From: Blastocatellia bacterium
GTDB lineage: Bacteria > Acidobacteriota > Blastocatellia > Chloracidobacteriales > JADJPF01
DNA: 62,877 nt
NCBI GenBank assembly: GCA_039812885.1
Contig: JBDIBI010000015.1
Coordinates: forward strand, 1-62,877
Reading direction: 5' to 3'
The notes beneath the pieces were generated by a model. It saw nothing but the letters and a program-made list of their open reading frames with translations. It was not told where the DNA came from and searched no databases. A program made the position numbers and the translations under genes. Shown here in pieces: positions 26,179 to 62,877 of this stretch; position 1 is the stretch's first letter, and each line of letters begins with the position of its first letter.

Positions 26179-26189
26179 CCCTCAAAAGC

Positions 26190-26526
26190 TCTACTTGATC
26201 AACCTAGGGTTAGTTTAACACTAACTCTAGGTTTCCCACTTAAATAAACCTTCTCTTCAAAATCATAACTAGTCAACTACCTACCCGTAAACGGGTAGGC
26301 TTGAGGGCGTAAAAGCCAACAAGCCCAGTTGAGCAGACTAAGCTTAGAAATAAGCTACGTTACGAAGAGAGTTAAAGAACGCACCCTAGAATGCGAGCCA
26401 GTTCTAGGCTCTGTAACTTCTAAGTTAAACAGACGTAAGGGTATAAAGTCAGTGCCTAGAAGAAATACTGATTCGTAACATTGTCGAGGCAAACATAACC
26501 ATAGAAATATGAGGTTTTTACTAACT
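26190..26526 (+). ncRNA. Candidate omega-RNA of the IscB locus: a structured non-coding region immediately upstream of iscB in the same orientation
   Basis: About 330 nt with no credible ORF, packed with stem-loops. (1) 26202-26232 is a 12-bp stem with one G·U pair. (2) CCTACCCG-TAAA-CGGGTAGG at 26280-26299 is a perfect 8-bp stem. (3) ggctt/aagcc at 26298-26317. (4) AGCTTA-GAAA-TAAGCT at 26341-26356. (5) CCTAGAA(26385-26391)/TTCTAGG(26402-26408). In addition, cctagaag recurs at 26454-26461, giving alternative, pseudoknot-like pairing. Its position relative to iscB matches the known organisation of omega-RNA followed by iscB. Confidence 0.55.
26202..26232 (+). other. Imperfect palindromic hairpin just after the alaS stop: either the alaS terminator or the IS200/605-like left-end subterminal hairpin
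   Basis: ACCTAGGGTTAG-tttaaca-CTAACTCTAGGT gives 12 pairs including one G·U. It is followed by tttccc, which is not a strong U-tract. Confidence 0.4.
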
Positions 26527-27822
26527 ATGCAAAAAGTATTTGTACTAGATACCAAGGGAAAACAACTAGATATGTGTCATCCTGGACAAGCTAGAAGGCT
26601 TTTGAAAGCTGGACAGGCAGCAGTGTATAAGCGTTTTCCTTTTACAATTAAACTTAAACGAGAAGTATGTAAGGCAGACTTACAAAACTATCAACTAAAG
26701 TTAGATCCTGGCAGTAAAAAAACAGGTGTTGCAATTGTTAACCAAGAAACAGGAGAAGTAGTCTTTGCTGCTAAAATAGAACATCGTGGACAAACTATTA
26801 AAGTTAGTTTAGATAATCGTCGTGAAGTTCGTCGTAATAGGCGAAACAGAAAGACTCGTTATCGTAAGTCTAGGTTTCATAATAGAACTCGCTCTAAAGG
26901 TTGGTTAGCACCTTCTCTACTGAGTAGAGTAGCTAATGTAGAAACTTGGGTTAGAAAGCTAATACAGTTGTGCCCAATAAGTGGAATTAGCTTAGAACTT
27001 GTTAAATTTGATACTCAGTTAATGCAAAATGCTGAAATTAAAGGGGTTCAATACCAACAAGGGACTTTAGCTGGTTATGAGCTGCGCGAGTATCTACTGG
27101 AGAAGTACAAGCGTAAATGTGCTTATTGCAAGAAAGAAAATATCCCTTTACAGATAGAGCATATAGTTCCAAAAAGCAGAGGTGGTAGTAATAGAGTGAC
27201 AAACCTAACTTTGGCTTGCGAAAAATGCAACTTAAAGAAAGCTAATAAAACTGCTACAGAATTTGGTTATCCTGAAGTTCAAGCTCAAGCTAAATTACCA
27301 TTAAAAGATGCTGCTGCTGTAAATAGTACAAGATGGGAAATATACAATAGGCTAAAGGGATTTGCTTTGCCAATAGAAACAGGTAGTGGTGGACTAACTA
27401 AGTTTAATCGTGCTAGCCAAAACTTACCTAAGACACATTACATAGATGCAGCATGTGTTGGAATAAGCACACCATTACTAAAACTAGATAAAGTACAAGT
27501 ACTAGAGATAAAAGCTACAGGACAGGGCACTCGCCAAATGTGTAAAGTAGATAAAATAGGATTTCCTCGCACTAGCGCAAAAACAGCAAAGAAGTTTTTT
27601 GGTTTTCAAACAGGAGACATAGTTAAAGCAATTGTTACTAGTGGTAAAAAAATTGGTACTTATATTGGTAAAGTTGCGGTTCGTGCTACGGGCTTTTTTG
27701 CCATTATCACTACTTCTGGCAAGGTCGATTCCATTAAGCATAACTTTTGCAAACTACTCTTTGCTTGTGATGGTTACTCTTATTCTTACTCTATATCAAA
27801 TGGCAATTCCTCCACAGCCTAA
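26509..27822 (+). CDS. iscB: IscB, an OMEGA-system RNA-guided endonuclease (Cas9 ancestor). It has a PLMP-like N-domain, split RuvC, an Arg-rich bridge helix, an HNH zinc finger and a C-terminal TAM-interaction-like domain
   Basis: The 437-aa ORF probably starts in reality at the ATG at 26527 (MQKVFVLD...). N-domain motifs KRFPFTIKL. RuvC-I LKLDPGSKKTGVAIV with Asp66 (nt 26704-26706). Bridge helix RREVRRNRRNRKTRYRKSRFHNRTR. RuvC-II ISLELVKFD with Glu163 (26995-26997). HNH CAYC...IEHIVPKSRGGSNRVTNLTLACEKCN with His218 (27160-27162) and CxxC...CxxC. RuvC-III THYIDAACVG with His310 and Asp313 (27436-27447). The whole order matches characterised IscB proteins such as OgeuIscB. Confidence 0.85.
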   Translation: MRFLLTMQKVFVLDTKGKQLDMCHPGQARRLLKAGQAAVYKRFPFTIKLKREVCKADLQNYQLKLDPGSKKTGVAIVNQETGEVVFAAKIEHRGQTIKVSLDNRREVRRNRRNRKTRYRKSRFHNRTRSKGWLAPSLLSRVANVETWVRKLIQLCPISGISLELVKFDTQLMQNAEIKGVQYQQGTLAGYELREYLLEKYKRKCAYCKKENIPLQIEHIVPKSRGGSNRVTNLTLACEKCNLKKANKTATEFGYPEVQAQAKLPLKDAAAVNSTRWEIYNRLKGFALPIETGSGGLTKFNRASQNLPKTHYIDAACVGISTPLLKLDKVQVLEIKATGQGTRQMCKVDKIGFPRTSAKTAKKFFGFQTGDIVKAIVTSGKKIGTYIGKVAVRATGFFAIITTSGKVDSIKHNFCKLLFACDGYSYSYSISNGNSSTA

Positions 27823-27832
27823 AGTCTGTGGA
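27811..27832 (+). other. Hairpin overlapping the iscB stop codon, a candidate right-end structure of the element or a terminator
   Basis: TCCACAG(27811-27817)-cctaaagt-CTGTGGA(27826-27832) is a perfect 7-bp stem with no U-tract. It lies 25 nt before the kinase-gene ATG. Confidence 0.35.
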
Positions 27833-27856
27833 CTCCTTGCCGAAGATTGTTGAATA

Positions 27857-30800
27857 ATGAGCAATAATATGATGGATCCAATAATTGGGCGCGCATTAGG
27901 GGATTTTCTAGTTAAGGAAAAGCTAGGAGAAGGTGGATTTGGAGCTGTTTATAAAGCAAGTCAAATTACTTTAGACCGTGAAGCTGTAGTTAAAATTCTT
28001 CATACTCGCCATCGTACTGACATAAACATAATAGAACGTTTTAAGCGAGAAGCCCGTCTAGCTTCGCGTTTAGAACATCCATATTGTGCTCATATTTATT
28101 CATTTGGAGCTGAAGAGGATGGATTATTATGGATTGCGATGGAATTAGTTGATGGAACTCCATTAAATGAAATAGTTAAATCCCAAGGCCCATTACCATT
28201 AGAACGCTTTATCCCTTTGTTAGATAAAATTTGTGAAGTTGTTCATACTGCACATGAAACAGGCATAGTTCATCGAGATATTAAACCTGCTAATGTTATG
28301 GTTATTTCTAGAGCTGGACGACTTTTACCTAAACTCCTAGATTTTGGTATTGCTAAGGATCTATCCCTTCAAAATGGCTCATTTGATAAAACTAGTGAAC
28401 TATCTACAGATAAATTACCTGATTTAATAAATGAATTTGATAGCTTAAAAAACACCCTTAGAAAAAACTCTTTGCAACTTGCTGAATCCAAACATCCAAC
28501 ATTATTTGTTAATACTTTGTTAGCTAAAGAAACTGATGAACAAAACCTTGACCTAGCTACAAATAAAATTACTCATCTTGTAAAAACACATGGAATAATG
28601 GGCTCACCTAGCTATATGGCTCCTGAACAGTGGAAAAATGCTGTTACAGCAGATGCTCGTAGTGATATTTATGCCTTAGGAGTTACTGCATATGAACTGC
28701 TTACGGGTAAATTGCCTTTCAAAGGCTCTATGAATACATTGATGAATGCACATCTTAACAAGCCTATTCCAACTTTAGCTACAACATTTGCAGAAAAGTT
28801 TGATCCAATAATTGCTAAAGCTATGGCTAAAAATGCTGAAGATCGCTATCAAACAGCTTTAGAGTTTGCTAAAGATTTCCGTGAAGCAGCTAATTTTACT
28901 CAAGAACAAATAATCCTACCTCATCTAGATGAAATACTTAAAGAAAATTTATTAACCAATGCCCCAAAACCTTTAGCTGATATGGTTGCAAGCCTTGTAG
29001 CGGCTCGCAATGCTTATCAATTTAGAGATAGATTATTTTTGGTGTTGCATGTTTTAATACGGTACATAAGCATATTAACCCTAGCAAGCTATGCAAGTAC
29101 TATTACAAATGAGCAAACTTCTGAGTTAATTACTAAAACAATAGCTAATTTACGTCATAATAGTTTAACTGATTTAGAATGGTTAGAACTTTCGAGAGAA
29201 CTATGCAGACCTTTTGCTAAAAAAAGAGATGCTTTTCCTATCCCAGAACTAATAACTGTATTTTTTGCAATAGATAGTGAACATCTTAACTTTCTAAATG
29301 AAACATTTCTTAAGCTCTTGCAAATGCAAGATGAAATAAATTCCAATGCTTCACTAAAAGAAGAGCAGCTAGTAACTTTACTGGCTCATTTCTTAACTAA
29401 ACTTACTTATTTATTAAAAGCTACAGCTTGGTTAAGTGATTATTACTTAGTACTTCCAGAAGCCAATAGAGCAACTAAATGGATGGGAATAGCTAAAGAG
29501 ATAAGTTCAATAAGTTTAAAAACCAGCAATATAACTAACCAAAAGGCTATTTTGGTAGATGCACAAGGGCATTTTGTCTTAACACTTTGGCCATTAATAG
29601 AAATAGTTGAACCTACCCCAGGAATGTCATTAGAAGTTTTTCTACTAGAGCGCAAAGGTCGTAATTCAGCAAAATTAGTTTCATTTCCTGATGGATTTGA
29701 AATAGAAACTGAAGCTCCTTGGGACTGGTTAAAACAACACTTTATTACAGATGAAGAAAAGGCAAAAACAGCAAAGCTGATAGAAAAATCTCCATATCTA
29801 GGTTTAGCTACCTTTTCAGCAAAAGACTCAAATTTGTTTTTTGGGCGAGAAAAAGAAACAGAAAACTTTCTAAATCGTTTGCGTATTCAACCATTACTTG
29901 CAGTTGTAGGGCCATCAGGAGCAGGAAAAAGTTCTTTTATTCAAGCTGGTGTTGTGGCTGGGCTTGATGAGAATTGGCAAGTTATAACAGTTCGCCCTGG
30001 ACTTTCCCCTATTGCTACATTAGCTAGCAAACTTTCAAAAGTAGGTATTGAGCTAGTAGATTTAAAAATTAAATTACAAAAAGATATAAATTTCCTAGGT
30101 AATAGCTTACGTCAATTTGCTAGTGAGCAAAATAGTCAAATCTTATTAATAATAGATCAATTTGAAGAAATCCTAACACTCTGTTTAGACAAGCAGGAAC
30201 AACAACTCTATGTAGAAGCAATAGTTTTAGCCGCACGCTCTGAAGAAGATCCTATTAGAGTTGTACTAACAATGAGAGATGATTTTTTGGTAAAAGCTAA
30301 AAAGCTAAAAGCTCTAAAAGATCGTCTTAACCAAGCATTAGAAATACTCACAACTCCAGCATCTACAGAACTTATTAAAATCCTTACAGAACCAGCTAGA
30401 CAAGCAGGCTATGAGTTTGAAGATCAAGAACTTCCTGTAGAAATTGTAAATGAAGTTACAGAACAAACTAGTGCCTTACCATTACTAGCATTTACAGCAG
30501 CAAAACTTTGGCAACAACGAGACAAAGAGTTTAAGCAACTCAGGCGCAGAAGTTATGAAGCAATGGGAGGTGTAGGAGGTGCATTAGCACGTCATGCTGA
30601 AAGTATGTTGTTGCAAATGACTCATATAGAACAATCTCTTGTTCGTGAAGCATTTCGTCATTTGGTCACAAGTGAAGGAACAAGAGCCGTTCTAACTCGT
30701 CCAGAGATATTGCAATTGTTAGGCAAAAGTGGCGAAAGTGAAGCTGTATTAGAAAAATTAATTTCCGCTAGGCTTCTAGTTGCAACTGAAGGAGAAAAAG

Positions 30801-33193
30801 GAGTTGATAGAATTGAAATTGTTCATGAAGCATTGCTCTCAGCTTGGCCACGGTTAATCAAATGGCAACAAGAAGATGCAGAAGGTGTACGTCTTAGAGA
30901 TCAACTTCGTTCTGCTGCTAGGCAATGGCAAGAAAAAAACTACTCTAGAAGCTTATTATGGCGAGATGAAGCATTGACAGAATACCAACTTTGGCGAATA
31001 CACTATAAAGGAAAACTTACTGAACTAGAAGAAAGTTTTGCTCAATCTAGCTTATCAGAAGCCAATCGACGCCAATTTATAAGAAGAAGCTTAATCATAA
31101 CAGCAATGGTTGTTTTACTAATAGTTTCTGCTGTGATGTATTATCAAAGACAACAAACACAAGAACAACTCTCACAAACTTTAGTACTTTATGAAGAACA
31201 AGCCCGAAAGGAAATACTAAAACAAAACTATGAAGGGGCTGCTGTTTACCTTAATGAAGCATACTTAAAAGGAGCAAATAGTCTAGCATTAAGGTATATG
31301 TTAGCTGTAGCTTTGGCAAAAGTAGAAAATCATCCCCCTATTACCCTATCAAATCATACAGATACAATAACCACAGCGACTTTTAACCCAACTGATGATT
31401 TAGTAGCAACAGCTAGCAAAGATAAAACAGCTAGAATCTGGCAAGTAGCTGATGGAAAAGAGCTTTTTACTCTCAAAGGCCATCAAGATGTAGTAGTATC
31501 TACTAGCTTTAGCCCTGATGGAAAATTACTACTCACTGCAAGTCTAGATAAAACGGCTAAGCTTTGGAAAGTAGCAGATGGAACTCTGATAACAACACTT
31601 ATTGGACACAGTGATGCTTTAAGAACTGCCCAATTTAGCCCTGATGGACAACAAATACTAACAACAAGTTATGATCATACAGCCAAAATTTGGGATACTA
31701 ATACAGGGAAGCTCTTAAATACGCTACAAGGACATCAAGCAACTATTTATGCAGCTTGTTATAGTAAAACTGGAAAATTAATAGCTACAGCTTCTGCTGA
31801 TAAAATAGTTAGTCTTTGGGACAGCAACAGCGGAGAGTTAAAAACAACTTTGAAAGGTCATCAAGCTGCTGTAATAAATGTCTCATTTAGCCCTGATGAA
31901 AAACTACTATTGACAGCCAGCATAGACCAAACAGCACGTATTTGGCAATTATCAGACGGACAACAACTTAATATTTTATCTAGCCATCAATCAGCAATAA
32001 CAAATAGTAAATTTAGTCCTGATGGAAAAGAAGTTTTAATTATGTGCAGTGATGGAAAGAGCTATCTTTGGGAAACAGCGACAGGCAAATTGCATGCAAC
32101 TTTAGAAGGTCATCAAGCTGACATAGTAAGTGGGGATTTCAGTAAAGATGGAAAACTAATAGTTACAACATCTTATGACAAAACCGTTAGAGTATGGGAA
32201 AGAGCTACAGGTAAATTTCTGGTAGCATTTGCAGAACATGAAGCATCAGTATTAAGTGGAATATTTTCTAATAAATGTGACAAAATTCTCAGTACCAGTG
32301 AAGACAAAACTGCCAAGATTTGGCCGCTAGTAGTAGAAACTAGATCCCCTATGGAAATAAATACCTTGGTTAAAGCTAAAGTTCCGATTTATTTAAAAGA
32401 AGGAAGACTTATAAACCCACAACTTCCTGTAAAGAAAGTAGAAACACCTAACCCCCAAAAAGAAGAAACCCCTCCTGAAAACCTTTATATAGAAGATTTA
32501 GGAAATAGTGTAAAAATAGAAATGGTGAAAATAAAAGCAGGTGAATTTATGATGGGTTCACCCTCTACATCAAAAGAGCATAATAATAATGAAACTTTAC
32601 ATAAAGTAACAATATCAAAAAGTTTTTATATGGGAAGATATGAAGTAACACAAGCTCAATGGAAAGTTGTAGCATCATTACCATCAATAAATATGTCTTT
32701 AAGTTCAGATACTTCACAAAATAAAGGAGATAATCTACCGGTAGAAAATATAACTTGGGATGAAGCCATGGAATTTTGCGCTAGATTATCAAAAGTGACA
32801 GGAAAACATTATAGTTTACCTACAGAATCACAATGGGAGTATGCAGCTAGGGCAGGAAATAGTAATGAATATCCAGAAAATTTAGATGAAATAAGTTGGT
32901 ATAATAAAAACTCTGAAGGTAAAAGCCATCCAGTAGGCCAGAAAAAAGCAAATTCCTGGGGATTATACGATATGTATGGAAATGTATTTGAATGGTGCTT
33001 AGATTTGTATGGAAATTATCCAACCACTCCTTCAGTAGATCCAATTGGAGCAGTTTCAGGAACAAATCATGTTCTTCGTGGTTCTGGTTATAATACCTAT
33101 GTAGCGGGTTCTCGACCAGCAGATCGCAGTAATGCTGTACCTAGCTATCATATAAGTTATCTAGGGTTTCGCCTAGTTTTAAACAGCGAATAA
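27857..33193 (+). CDS. Giant multidomain signalling protein of 1778 aa: Hanks-type Ser/Thr kinase, STAND/NACHT-like P-loop NTPase, a single TM helix, TPR-like helices, an eight-blade WD40 propeller and a C-terminal formylglycine-generating-enzyme (FGE-sulfatase/SUMF1) domain
   Basis: Kinase: GEGGFGAVYKA, HRDIKPANVM, DFGIAK, GSPSYMAPE. NTPase: Walker A VVGPSGAGKSS, Walker B LLIIDQFEEI. Transmembrane helix: LIITAMVVLLIVSAVMYY (about nt 31090-31140). WD40: eight units of GH...WD. FGE: WEYAARAG, GLYDMYGNVFEWCLD, RGSGY. Confidence 0.8.
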   Translation: MSNNMMDPIIGRALGDFLVKEKLGEGGFGAVYKASQITLDREAVVKILHTRHRTDINIIERFKREARLASRLEHPYCAHIYSFGAEEDGLLWIAMELVDGTPLNEIVKSQGPLPLERFIPLLDKICEVVHTAHETGIVHRDIKPANVMVISRAGRLLPKLLDFGIAKDLSLQNGSFDKTSELSTDKLPDLINEFDSLKNTLRKNSLQLAESKHPTLFVNTLLAKETDEQNLDLATNKITHLVKTHGIMGSPSYMAPEQWKNAVTADARSDIYALGVTAYELLTGKLPFKGSMNTLMNAHLNKPIPTLATTFAEKFDPIIAKAMAKNAEDRYQTALEFAKDFREAANFTQEQIILPHLDEILKENLLTNAPKPLADMVASLVAARNAYQFRDRLFLVLHVLIRYISILTLASYASTITNEQTSELITKTIANLRHNSLTDLEWLELSRELCRPFAKKRDAFPIPELITVFFAIDSEHLNFLNETFLKLLQMQDEINSNASLKEEQLVTLLAHFLTKLTYLLKATAWLSDYYLVLPEANRATKWMGIAKEISSISLKTSNITNQKAILVDAQGHFVLTLWPLIEIVEPTPGMSLEVFLLERKGRNSAKLVSFPDGFEIETEAPWDWLKQHFITDEEKAKTAKLIEKSPYLGLATFSAKDSNLFFGREKETENFLNRLRIQPLLAVVGPSGAGKSSFIQAGVVAGLDENWQVITVRPGLSPIATLASKLSKVGIELVDLKIKLQKDINFLGNSLRQFASEQNSQILLIIDQFEEILTLCLDKQEQQLYVEAIVLAARSEEDPIRVVLTMRDDFLVKAKKLKALKDRLNQALEILTTPASTELIKILTEPARQAGYEFEDQELPVEIVNEVTEQTSALPLLAFTAAKLWQQRDKEFKQLRRRSYEAMGGVGGALARHAESMLLQMTHIEQSLVREAFRHLVTSEGTRAVLTRPEILQLLGKSGESEAVLEKLISARLLVATEGEKGVDRIEIVHEALLSAWPRLIKWQQEDAEGVRLRDQLRSAARQWQEKNYSRSLLWRDEALTEYQLWRIHYKGKLTELEESFAQSSLSEANRRQFIRRSLIITAMVVLLIVSAVMYYQRQQTQEQLSQTLVLYEEQARKEILKQNYEGAAVYLNEAYLKGANSLALRYMLAVALAKVENHPPITLSNHTDTITTATFNPTDDLVATASKDKTARIWQVADGKELFTLKGHQDVVVSTSFSPDGKLLLTASLDKTAKLWKVADGTLITTLIGHSDALRTAQFSPDGQQILTTSYDHTAKIWDTNTGKLLNTLQGHQATIYAACYSKTGKLIATASADKIVSLWDSNSGELKTTLKGHQAAVINVSFSPDEKLLLTASIDQTARIWQLSDGQQLNILSSHQSAITNSKFSPDGKEVLIMCSDGKSYLWETATGKLHATLEGHQADIVSGDFSKDGKLIVTTSYDKTVRVWERATGKFLVAFAEHEASVLSGIFSNKCDKILSTSEDKTAKIWPLVVETRSPMEINTLVKAKVPIYLKEGRLINPQLPVKKVETPNPQKEETPPENLYIEDLGNSVKIEMVKIKAGEFMMGSPSTSKEHNNNETLHKVTISKSFYMGRYEVTQAQWKVVASLPSINMSLSSDTSQNKGDNLPVENITWDEAMEFCARLSKVTGKHYSLPTESQWEYAARAGNSNEYPENLDEISWYNKNSEGKSHPVGQKKANSWGLYDMYGNVFEWCLDLYGNYPTTPSVDPIGAVSGTNHVLRGSGYNTYVAGSRPADRSNAVPSYHISYLGFRLVLNSE

Positions 33194-61100: not shown

Positions 61101-62877
61101 TTACATATTTTTTTTATAACAAAATAGAATTAATCCAACACAAATAATTAATGATATAAAACTAATATATAAACCATAGAAAAAAGATTTTGGATGAAAA
61201 ATTAATTCGATTTTATGATTTCCAGCATCTATAATTAAACCTCTTAATGCATAATCTACTCGTAATATATCTGCTGGTTTATTATCAATAAATGCTTGCC
61301 AACCAGGATAATAAGTATCTGTTAATACTAATAATTTTTTACTGTTTGAACTTGTATTTAACATTACTTGATTATTTTTATAATCTGTAATTTCTATTTT
61401 GTCAGTTGTTTCAACTGATTTTATATCTGTTATATTTATTTTGTCATCTGTAACAATTATATTTGAATAAAAATCAAAATCAGTTTGTTTCATTTTATTA
61501 ATAGTTGTTGATAAATCACTAATTTTTTCTACATTTTTAGCAAAAAATGCTCGTGGCATTACATTTGTGTTTTCATATATTTTAACTCCATTGCTAACAT
61601 GAACTTCTTTATAGTTAAGGTTATTAAAGTTATATTTATCTCTAGTCATTAAATATTTTACTCCAAGAAAATCATATAATGGAGATGATGTTTTCTCAAA
61701 AACAATATGACTTAAATGTTCTTGGGGTTCACTTAGTGATATAAACTCACGATACCATTTTGGAAACAATTGGTCTTTACCATAAATAGTATTAATTTGG
61801 TAAGGTAACATTGTATTTGGAGGAGAAATTACTTTAAATCCAGAAAATTTTTCTGCTTTTCCACCTAATTCAGCAGGTGTAACAACTAAACGATATAATC
61901 CAATATTATTTTTTACAAAATCTGTAGCATCAGTTTTAGGGTAAATTAATGAACTTTGAAAAGTTTTATTATACTGATTACTTTGCCATATTAATTCTGT
62001 TATTAAGATACAAAATAATAATATTATTAATTGTAATTTTTTAGTTTGTTTTTCTTTTATGTAATACCAACAAGTTATTGTTAGTACAAATATAATTACT
62101 ATAGGAATAATCAAATCTATATTTTTATAATAGAAATGTTCATTTAGAGAAATCAAAATTCTTAAGATTAATCGTTTTAATCCAGAGAAATTTTTTGCAT
62201 TTGGCAAGAATCTTCCTAATAAATTAAATCCTACTAAACTAATTAATAGGCTCACTAATAAAAATATTCCAATATGTTGAATTTTTTTCAAAAAATCTTT
62301 TAATTCTAACCAATCTAATTTAGAAAATTTATCTGCTCCATAAGCAACTAATACAGCACTACCAAAAATATAAATGCCGCTAATTCTTGTCACAGCTCTA
62401 ATTGTTTTTAACACTGGAATATATTTTGTTACATGAACATATATAGGAGCAGAAACCATTACTATTAATGCACCTATAGCTAAAATAGCAAAATAATAGA
62501 TTCTTTTATCTATTTCTTGTGATTTAGTACGCCAACATATGATTGCAACAAAAATTAATGAAACTAGCCCTAAATAAATAATATGGTCTTGAGAAACACC
62601 AATATCTACAAATCTTTTAGCAATAGTTGAGTCAAAAGCACGACCAAAAGCACGAGGTAAAATAAGAGTTAACAAATGCCAAGGAGGAAGCCAAATATAA
62701 CCTATTTCTGTAGGAACAATTTTTCGATTAGAATAACTTAACAGTTCAAAAACTGGCCACCAATTTGCAGTTGACAGTCCAAATCCTACAAGTAATGTAA
62801 TTACAAGATATTTTACAGAATATTTTAATTCTTTTAGTTTATCTACAATACAATTGTTTAAATATGGGTAAAGTAAA
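61101..62877 (-). CDS. YfhO-family-like polytopic membrane protein (GT-C-like glycosyltransferase/polymerase); C-terminal part, with the gene continuing past the right window edge
   Basis: The reading frame is open from 62675 to the window end; the 'M' in the ORF track is a TTG. Multiple transmembrane helices, then a C-terminal soluble region. The conserved C-terminal YfhO-type motif TDTYYPGWQAFIDNKPADILRVDYALRGL is followed by a final transmembrane helix. Confidence 0.55.
   Translation of the reverse strand, partial: LLYPYLNNCIVDKLKELKYSVKYLVITLLVGFGLSTANWWPVFELLSYSNRKIVPTEIGYIWLPPWHLLTLILPRAFGRAFDSTIAKRFVDIGVSQDHIIYLGLVSLIFVAIICWRTKSQEIDKRIYYFAILAIGALIVMVSAPIYVHVTKYIPVLKTIRAVTRISGIYIFGSAVLVAYGADKFSKLDWLELKDFLKKIQHIGIFLLVSLLISLVGFNLLGRFLPNAKNFSGLKRLILRILISLNEHFYYKNIDLIIPIVIIFVLTITCWYYIKEKQTKKLQLIILLFCILITELIWQSNQYNKTFQSSLIYPKTDATDFVKNNIGLYRLVVTPAELGGKAEKFSGFKVISPPNTMLPYQINTIYGKDQLFPKWYREFISLSEPQEHLSHIVFEKTSSPLYDFLGVKYLMTRDKYNFNNLNYKEVHVSNGVKIYENTNVMPRAFFAKNVEKISDLSTTINKMKQTDFDFYSNIIVTDDKINITDIKSVETTDKIEITDYKNNQVMLNTSSNSKKLLVLTDTYYPGWQAFIDNKPADILRVDYALRGLIIDAGNHKIELIFHPKSFFYGLYISFISLIICVGLILFCYKKNM

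Follow-up and report, generated by a model that had tools for sequence, protein, structure and literature searches.

Organization of the locus

The stretch of DNA under analysis, i.e., the 62,877 nucleotides of contig JBDIBI010000015.1 from a Blastocatellia bacterium (hereafter referred to as the window), harbors an iscB gene which is embedded, together with the scaffold of an omega-RNA and a structured transposon end, between alaS and the gene for a giant protein kinase. Every testable defining feature of an IscB/OMEGA system and of a non-autonomous IS200/IS605-type element was found at this locus, and the whole is very probably a canonical non-autonomous IscB-omega-RNA ("ISC"/OMEGA) element of the IS200/IS605 superfamily, which would operate through the mechanism proposed below. 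The main components of the locus are the following:

26272..27849, + strand: whole IscB element, 1578 bp; its left end is the omega-RNA end (the right end, RE, in the transposase's sense) and its right end is the hairpin end (the left end, LE)
26527..27822, + strand: iscB coding sequence, 431 amino acids (aa) from the conserved start; the open reading frame (ORF) is open from 26509, which gives 437 aa
23539..26178, co-oriented with iscB: alaS, the upstream neighbour (Pfam tRNA-synt_2c, tRNA_SAD, and DHHA1)
27857..33193: kinase gene, 1778 aa, the downstream neighbour (Pkinase-nSTAND1-WD40-FGE-sulfatase domains)

The position of the iscB locus between alaS and a giant kinase gene had been proposed in an original prediction made from the DNA letters, and the domain matches of both neighbours agree with it. 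The AlaS sequence of the window is nearest to Blastocatellia/Acidobacteriota sequences, and the named closest relatives of its IscB come from Blastocatellia/Acidobacteriota as well. The element type is already known and is recognised by curated NCBIfam and Rfam models: IscB is the ancestor of Cas9, and IscB-omega-RNA elements were described between 2021 and 2023, with their structures solved. In NCBI records, the name 'RNA-guided endonuclease IscB' is already given to relatives of the window protein, and the identical 431-aa protein (P0001) is present in the public NCBI protein collection, on two NCBI contigs.

The IscB protein

The 437-aa ORF reported in the original prediction (26509..27822, + strand) does exist; its length, on the other hand, had to be revised. 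The ATG at 26509 is missing from the three closest loci, and the conserved start corresponds to M7, i.e., the ATG at 26527, which lies 12 nt downstream of a GAGG motif (26511..26514), both start and motif being kept in the relatives. Since the upstream ATG is not conserved, the start of iscB was placed at 26527, thus giving a protein of 431 aa. All the motifs that had been quoted are located at the residues originally given (numbering of the 437-aa frame):

residue 41: KRFPFTIKL
residue 65: LDPGSKKTG, RuvC-I with catalytic D66, in the PLMP/RuvC-I region
residues ~100-130: Arg-rich bridge helix
residue 161: SLELVKF, RuvC-II with catalytic E163
residues 204 and 237: zinc finger CAYC / CEKC, within the HNH domain
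residue 217: EHIVPK, HNH with catalytic H218
residue 310: HYIDAACVG, RuvC-III with catalytic H310 and D313
residues ~320-430: beta-rich C-terminal domain

In the HMMER alignment to OgeuIscB (PDB 7xht), the residues D66, E163, H218, H310, and D313 fall on D61, E193, H247, H340, and D343, respectively, and all five are invariant in an alignment of 53 homologues. The profile search of the ORF, which the original prediction had recommended, matched IscB, RRXRR, and HNH models: the NCBIfam equivalog NF040563 ('RNA-guided endonuclease IscB') scored 441.5 bits (cutoff 175), with protein residues 10-318 aligned to positions 1-314 of the 314 of the model, and Pfam RRXRR scored 229.6 bits over residues 10-185. 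The RRXRR match bears out the PLMP-like N-terminal domain that had been proposed, but not the literal tetrapeptide from which the domain takes its name: the consensus of the 53 homologues at that place is PLxP, and the window protein and its closest relatives read QLDM (residues 19-22, window 26563-26574).

The Pfam models HNH, HNH_4, and HNH_5 are also matched (residues 204-252), and many homologues are called, e.g., '5-methylcytosine-specific restriction endonuclease McrA' by JGI. Both observations might point to a simple protein-guided HNH endonuclease, such as a homing endonuclease or a McrA-like restriction enzyme. However, the HNH domain is confined to residues ~204-252 and sits between RuvC-II and RuvC-III, i.e., inside a split RuvC fold whose three motifs are conserved; the match to the IscB equivalog model is full-length, and a conserved structured RNA adjoins the gene in every relative examined. 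A simple HNH enzyme is hardly credible at this locus. The window protein is an IscB and not a plain HNH endonuclease lacking RuvC-II and RuvC-III, the outcome that the original prediction had set against its own: RuvC-I, -II, and -III are all present, and the profiles place the ORF in the IscB family.

A search with phmmer against the PDB sequences retrieved TbaIscB (E 1.5e-38) and OgeuIscB (E 2.7e-29), with E values improving to 2e-63 and 1.2e-41, respectively, when a profile of the 53 homologues was used. Similarly, when the AlphaFold2 model of the protein (mean predicted local distance difference test, pLDDT, 75.3) was compared with known structures by Foldseek, IscB/IsrB-omega-RNA complexes ranked first (8csz_D, E 1.1e-25). 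The C-terminal ~110 residues form a beta-rich domain, confidently modelled by AlphaFold2, in which the sequence profile fades, the match reaching position ~342-378 of 430. On the basis of the model, this part is likely the domain interacting with the transposon-adjacent motif (TAM); since the similarity fades precisely there, the TAM specificity is not transferable from OgeuIscB.

The IscB proteins of known structure, i.e., OgeuIscB (7xht, 8csz, and 7utn), TbaIscB (9k30), HfmIscB (9k2z), and OrufIscB (9nvu), have the same domain order as the window protein and share its catalytic residues (as judged from the alignment to OgeuIscB), even though the identity over structural alignments is only ~20-24%. 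The window IscB is shorter than OgeuIscB (431 versus 496 aa) and has different zinc-finger ligands (CxxC...CxxC versus CxxC...CxxH). It also differs from IsrB (PDB 8dmb), which is without the HNH domain and only nicks DNA, in that the HNH insertion is complete. By analogy with characterised IscBs, the window IscB would cleave double-stranded DNA in an RNA-guided and TAM-dependent fashion.

The HNH region is weakly similar to the Cas9d and Cas9 models as well, and structural matches to Cas9d and Cas9 are found, ranking below IscB. It might hence be asked whether the protein works with a CRISPR array located elsewhere, as a miniature Cas9 (type II-D-like) or as an IscB associated with CRISPR. 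Type II-D Cas9 (Cas9d; PDB 9lgi and 8zq9) does resemble the window protein in its RuvC-HNH core, which descended from IscB; unlike the window locus, it has a recognition (REC) domain, a CRISPR array, and a tracrRNA. The scores of the window protein against the NCBIfam models are far below the cutoffs (43.4 bits versus 375 for Cas9d, and 26.8 versus 100 for Cas9), and the only guide RNA is a single HEARO-type omega-RNA rather than a tracrRNA/crRNA pair. No CRISPR-like repeat array and no cas genes, including cas1/cas2-like neighbours, were found in the whole 62.9-kb window, and a protein of 431 aa leaves no place for a REC lobe. The statement of the original prediction that the protein is too small to be a Cas9 is in full agreement with these data. 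Membership in type II CRISPR-Cas was rejected, array, adaptation genes, and REC lobe all being absent within the window, and this explanation has next to no probability.

The omega-RNA and its guide

The region upstream of iscB contains the following features:

26272..26499, + strand: omega-RNA scaffold (Rfam HEARO, RF02033), 136.4 bits versus a gathering score of 83
26500..26511, + strand: GAAA-tetraloop hairpin CATA-GAAA-TATG, 3' of the Rfam model and adjoining the GAGG ribosome-binding motif
26256..26271 (approximate), + strand: predicted guide TTCAAAATCATAACTA, in the host flank

The covariance-model search that had been suggested for this region disclosed a full-length HEARO match (model positions 1-211 of 211) on the same strand as iscB, and this is the only Rfam match at the gathering threshold within the window. 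RF02033 is known to represent the omega-RNA of IscB (literature, including Meers et al. 2023, bioRxiv 10.1101/2023.03.14.532601). A match to Rfam SCARNA3 inside the ORF was discarded as a chance one (22.4 bits versus 47, E 0.22). The structured stretch of 330 nt described in the original prediction is therefore only in part omega-RNA: positions 26272..~26511 correspond to the scaffold, and the remainder does not, the segment 26179..26255 being host flank with a 14-bp hairpin of its own. An omega-RNA of the same type is located in the same place in the three closest loci (L081, L082, and L083). The consensus fold of four omega-RNAs comprises 74 predicted pairs, 21 of which show compensatory changes. 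The GAAA hairpin covaries too, columns 229-232/237-240 being paired through CG, GC, and UA changes in the relatives. Its presence 3' of the HEARO model agrees with the remark that RF02033 does not include the downstream structure (Meers et al. 2023).

The left boundary of the element was established from 41 non-redundant related loci, anchored at the point where the scaffold begins. The 30 nt upstream of it carry 0-0.3 bits per position, versus 2.0 bits from scaffold position 1 (G26272) onward; since conservation steps up so sharply there, 26272 was taken as the end of the element and the preceding sequence as host flank and source of the guide. This is in line with the description of the transposon RE as the limit of the omega-RNA (Meers et al. 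2023).

The predicted guide is accordingly the stretch of host DNA abutting the scaffold. Its 16-nt length, usual for IscB, was assumed by analogy with characterised IscBs. At 0-1 mismatches, the sole match of TTCAAAATCATAACTA in the window is its own flank, and the next best match has two mismatches.

The 14-bp hairpin that separates the stop codon of alaS from the predicted guide is followed by UUUCCCACUU (26201..26233). Its RNA fold has a free energy of -18.7 kcal/mol (z -4.1), and it looks like the terminator of alaS. In L164, a closely related locus described below, the only substitution in a stem arm replaces a U-A pair by a U-G wobble, so that the pairing is kept only in the RNA of the + strand.

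The ends of the element and the predicted TAM

The similarity to the relatives runs on beyond the iscB stop codon, into a structured end that is organized as follows:

27803..27841, no strand assigned: structured transposon end with two nested stems; TTCCTCC is also part of this end
27803-07 / 27837-41: outer stem, GGCAA / TTGCC
27812-17 / 27826-31: inner stem, CCACAG / CTGTGG, with a conserved CTAAAG loop
27842..27849: 8-nt linker GAAGATTG, between the outer stem and the TAM
27850..27854, + strand: predicted TAM, TTGAA (TTCAA on the transposase strand), i.e., host DNA, the first bases past the element

Every position of the two stems is paired in the window, which does not hold for several relatives. 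Pairing was counted with an explicit script, and among six relatives at least two Watson-Crick pair types occur at 3/5 positions of the outer stem and at 5/6 of the inner one. The minus-strand single-stranded DNA fold of this end has a free energy of -10.3 kcal/mol (z -3.6). The same TTCCTC-hairpin-TTTCC layout is shared by 28 distinct loci, the most divergent of them with 52% protein identity. In 20 of these 28 loci, an ATGA is present in the interval where it is expected (~19% by chance), and the similarity stops at this ATGA(A). The ends of the element can thus be read from comparative data alone.

In the window, the TTGAA at 27850 lies 18 nt past the inner stem, the same spacing shown by ATGA in L081. 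Moreover, L084, the closest relative for which a 3' flank is available (80% identity, at a different locus), has the same TTG|TTGAA. Because of the L081-like spacing and of the identical junction in L084, TTGAA was read as the TAM of a sub-clade, and the element was taken to end with position 27849; judging from these sequences, TTGAA is probably the normal TAM of the sub-clade to which the window belongs. An alternative TAM is the ATGA at 27857..27860, i.e., the kinase start codon plus an A, which would shift the right boundary to 27856; to this reading we assign roughly one chance in three. An insertion exactly at the kinase start codon was therefore retained as a minor alternative only, the 18-nt spacing and L084 favouring TTGAA.

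The end of L084 is itself altered: at L084:1446-1540 (and also in L124), unrelated sequence has taken the place of the right arm of the inner hairpin, and the terminal TTGTTGAA is retained. Possibly, the L084 copy has suffered damage at this end.

In the Acidobacteria clade of the window, the iscB frame runs through the stems of the transposon end and stops at the TAA of the CTAAAG loop (27820-22 in the window). In most cyanobacterial relatives (L102, L145, and L090 among those compared), the ORF ends ~30-50 nt before the end motif. On the basis of this comparison, the last ~10 residues of IscB are probably dictated by the structure of the DNA and not by protein function.

Relatives, mobility, and selection

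At least 8000 IscB homologues were retrieved from public data (E < 1e-20), and among GTDB representatives the best match, with 59% identity, was found in cyanobacteria. The closer relatives are located in unrelated surroundings: the one with 81% identity lies between an acyl-CoA dehydrogenase and a ClpB-like gene, the one with 78% (L083) between RusA and Rad52, and the one with 76% between PfkB and a PIN-domain gene. Since relatives sharing 76-81% identity sit among unrelated genes, the family of elements probably moves. For the same reason, the vicinity of a signalling gene, which the original prediction had pointed out, is nothing special, these three contexts having no relation with one another. 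The comparison of the window iscB with the same relatives gave dN/dS values (ratios of nonsynonymous to synonymous substitution rates) of 0.12-0.15, i.e., the gene is under purifying selection.

In L083 (323-5925), the RusA and Rad52/Rad22 genes are accompanied by small unannotated ORFs, and the context is phage- or prophage-like. HEARO/IscB have been reported in viral genomes, and this context is in line with that. A more distant relative (41% identity) is encoded by L074, a contig of a Candidatus Borrarchaeota archaeon, where the upstream sequence begins with the GTCA scaffold motif; given that an archaeal contig encodes such a relative, the element type crosses the divide between bacteria and archaea.

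An independent Logan assembly from another sample (L164) is 99.75% identical to the window over 4.8 kb, encodes an AlaS with 100% identity, and shares both the insertion and its left junction. Positions 4426-4800 of L164 correspond to 26179-26553 of the window, and the contig stops 27 nt inside iscB. A break at this point would be expected if the element were repeated in that genome, or equally if coverage were low.

Proposed mechanism

The protein and RNA families, the catalytic residues, the boundaries and end structures, the purifying selection, and the varied contexts of the relatives have been established in this analysis. From them, a mechanism can be proposed which follows the OMEGA model of Meers et al. 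(2023) and in which transcription, RNA processing, TAM specificity, cleavage, and a TnpA acting in trans are inferred by analogy. A transcript starting in the alaS-side flank would be processed to an omega-RNA consisting of ~16 nt from the flank (TTCAAAATCATAACTA) at the 5' side and of the HEARO scaffold. The complex formed by this RNA and IscB would recognise double-stranded DNA in which a match to the guide is followed by a 3' TAM, and the HNH and RuvC sites would cut one strand each. A TnpA encoded elsewhere in the genome might excise the element without leaving a scar, creating the empty site (donor joint) TTCAAAATCATAACTA|TTGAA, with the junction TTCAAAATCATAACTA|TTGAATAATGAGC. Only such an empty site would combine the guide match and the TAM; once cut, it would be repaired from the sister chromosome still carrying the element, which would thus be reinstated, as in the model of Meers et al. 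(2023). The occupied site would be spared because there the scaffold, with GTCAA as its first bases, and not the TAM, comes after the guide match.

The element that most resembles this arrangement is GstIscB of Geobacillus stearothermophilus. It is likewise a non-autonomous IS200/IS605-type element, with a HEARO-type omega-RNA upstream of iscB and bounded by the transposon RE, with the TAM adjoining the opposite end, and with the same orientation as the upstream host gene. An upstream gene co-oriented with iscB is indeed typical of these elements, and the TAM of GstIscB is TTCAT, i.e., ATGAA on the iscB strand (Meers et al. 2023). ATGAA occurs at the matching place in the clade of the window; in the window itself, where TTGAA is found, the first base of the TAM is T and not A as in GstIscB. 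The two elements also differ in that they belong to different phyla, in that the window element is known from its sequence alone, and in that its iscB frame enters the end hairpin and stops in the loop.

Some observations weigh against the interpretation of the locus as a canonical element working in this way. No match to the Y1 transposase family was found among the window ORFs of 110-260 aa. The TAM position is occupied by TTGAA, whereas most relatives have ATGAA; this may represent a variant proper to the sub-clade, or else a change by which both excision and cleavage are prevented. If the hairpin at 26201..26233 ends the alaS transcripts, the omega-RNA needs another promoter, and a scan with the sigma-70 consensus gave no more sites than in shuffled sequence, so that a sigma-70 promoter for the omega-RNA was rejected. 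Lastly, no empty site was found through the nearest AlaS relatives (82-84% identity): downstream of alaS they have a BNR/sortilin-like or a Uma2 gene and no kinase gene, and since the kinase gene does not follow alaS in them, there is no empty site to compare.

The missing transposase had already been noticed in the original prediction, and correctly so, as far as the window is concerned. That the iscB gene is "solo" is, however, no peculiarity: only ~1.5% of iscB genes are near tnpA (Meers et al. 2023), and Goltsman et al. agree that its absence is the norm. No Y1_Tnp was found among the called genes around L081-L083 either.

These observations might also be read in a different way, that is, that the copy has been immobilised or domesticated. 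Unable to move for want of a cognate TnpA or because of an altered TAM, it would persist as a fixed locus, be it a fossil still awaiting decay or a nuclease or regulator that the host has put to its own use, and it might supply transcription into the kinase gene. The lack of tnpA in the window and the TTGAA in place of ATGAA would fit such a history. So would the insertion shared with L164 and the kinase ATG (27857) lying directly behind the element, 8 nt past its end, with the original 5' region 1.58 kb away. On the other side, about 98.5% of iscB genes are without a nearby tnpA, TTGAA is present also in L084 at a different locus, and an insertion common to two near-identical strains says little on fixation. 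In addition, both ends are intact, with perfectly paired stems, the omega-RNA is far above threshold, and the sole exact match of the guide in the window is its own flank, a pattern of selfish elements unlike that of a retargeted host tool. An immobilised or domesticated copy is, on balance, very unlikely. Between the "selfish IS remnant" and the "domesticated nuclease" left open by the original prediction, the intact ends speak for a mobile element, and domestication finds no support.

Little changes for biology with a canonical IscB-omega-RNA element at this locus, and its practical value is modest. It adds one more compact (431-aa) candidate nuclease from Acidobacteria, for which the inputs of a cleavage assay are now in hand: the omega-RNA is fully delimited, and both the position of the guide and the TAM, (A/T)TGAA, are predicted.

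Element ends at the start codons of downstream genes

In two of the relatives, L081 (11329) and L083 (2946), the ATG of the terminal ATGA is the called start of a co-oriented downstream gene. Overall, the terminal ATG opens an ORF of at least 80 codons in 9/20 loci, versus 15.3% of control ATGA sites (binomial p 0.0015); without the two loci that prompted the idea, the count is 7/18 (p 0.013). In addition, GGAGG/GAGG precedes the terminal ATG by 5-9 nt in many of the element ends; this motif is complementary to CCTCC across the hairpin. In the window, the kinase ATG is located 8 nt past the end of the element if TTGAA is the TAM, and 1 nt past it if ATGA is.

It might be imagined that the copy in the window is fixed and that its 3' end supplies the transcription and translation-initiation context of the 1778-aa kinase gene. 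If so, this would be one instance of a wider pattern, in which a start codon is a place where an IscB element is tolerated, or even of advantage, since it rebuilds a ribosome-binding site. We consider this reading very unlikely. No start-codon mechanism is claimed, since a similar enrichment would result if insertions survived nowhere but at harmless intergenic ATGA sites; such selective survival may explain it, and the enrichment is to be regarded as a lead and not as a finding.

Other features of the window

In the protein encoded downstream of the element, a Ser/Thr kinase domain is joined to an nSTAND1 NTPase, to WD40 repeats, and, at the C terminus, to an FGE-sulfatase-like domain. The start codon of its gene is directly 3' of the IscB element, and the former upstream region of the gene is now 1.58 kb away.

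The window contains a single copy of the IscB element, and neither of the element ends recurs in it. A search for tRNA genes in the window gave none, and base composition does not shift across the element. A 21-nt tandem repeat (3.3 copies, 68% matches) is located at 61395-61465, inside a minus-strand ORF (61101..62675).

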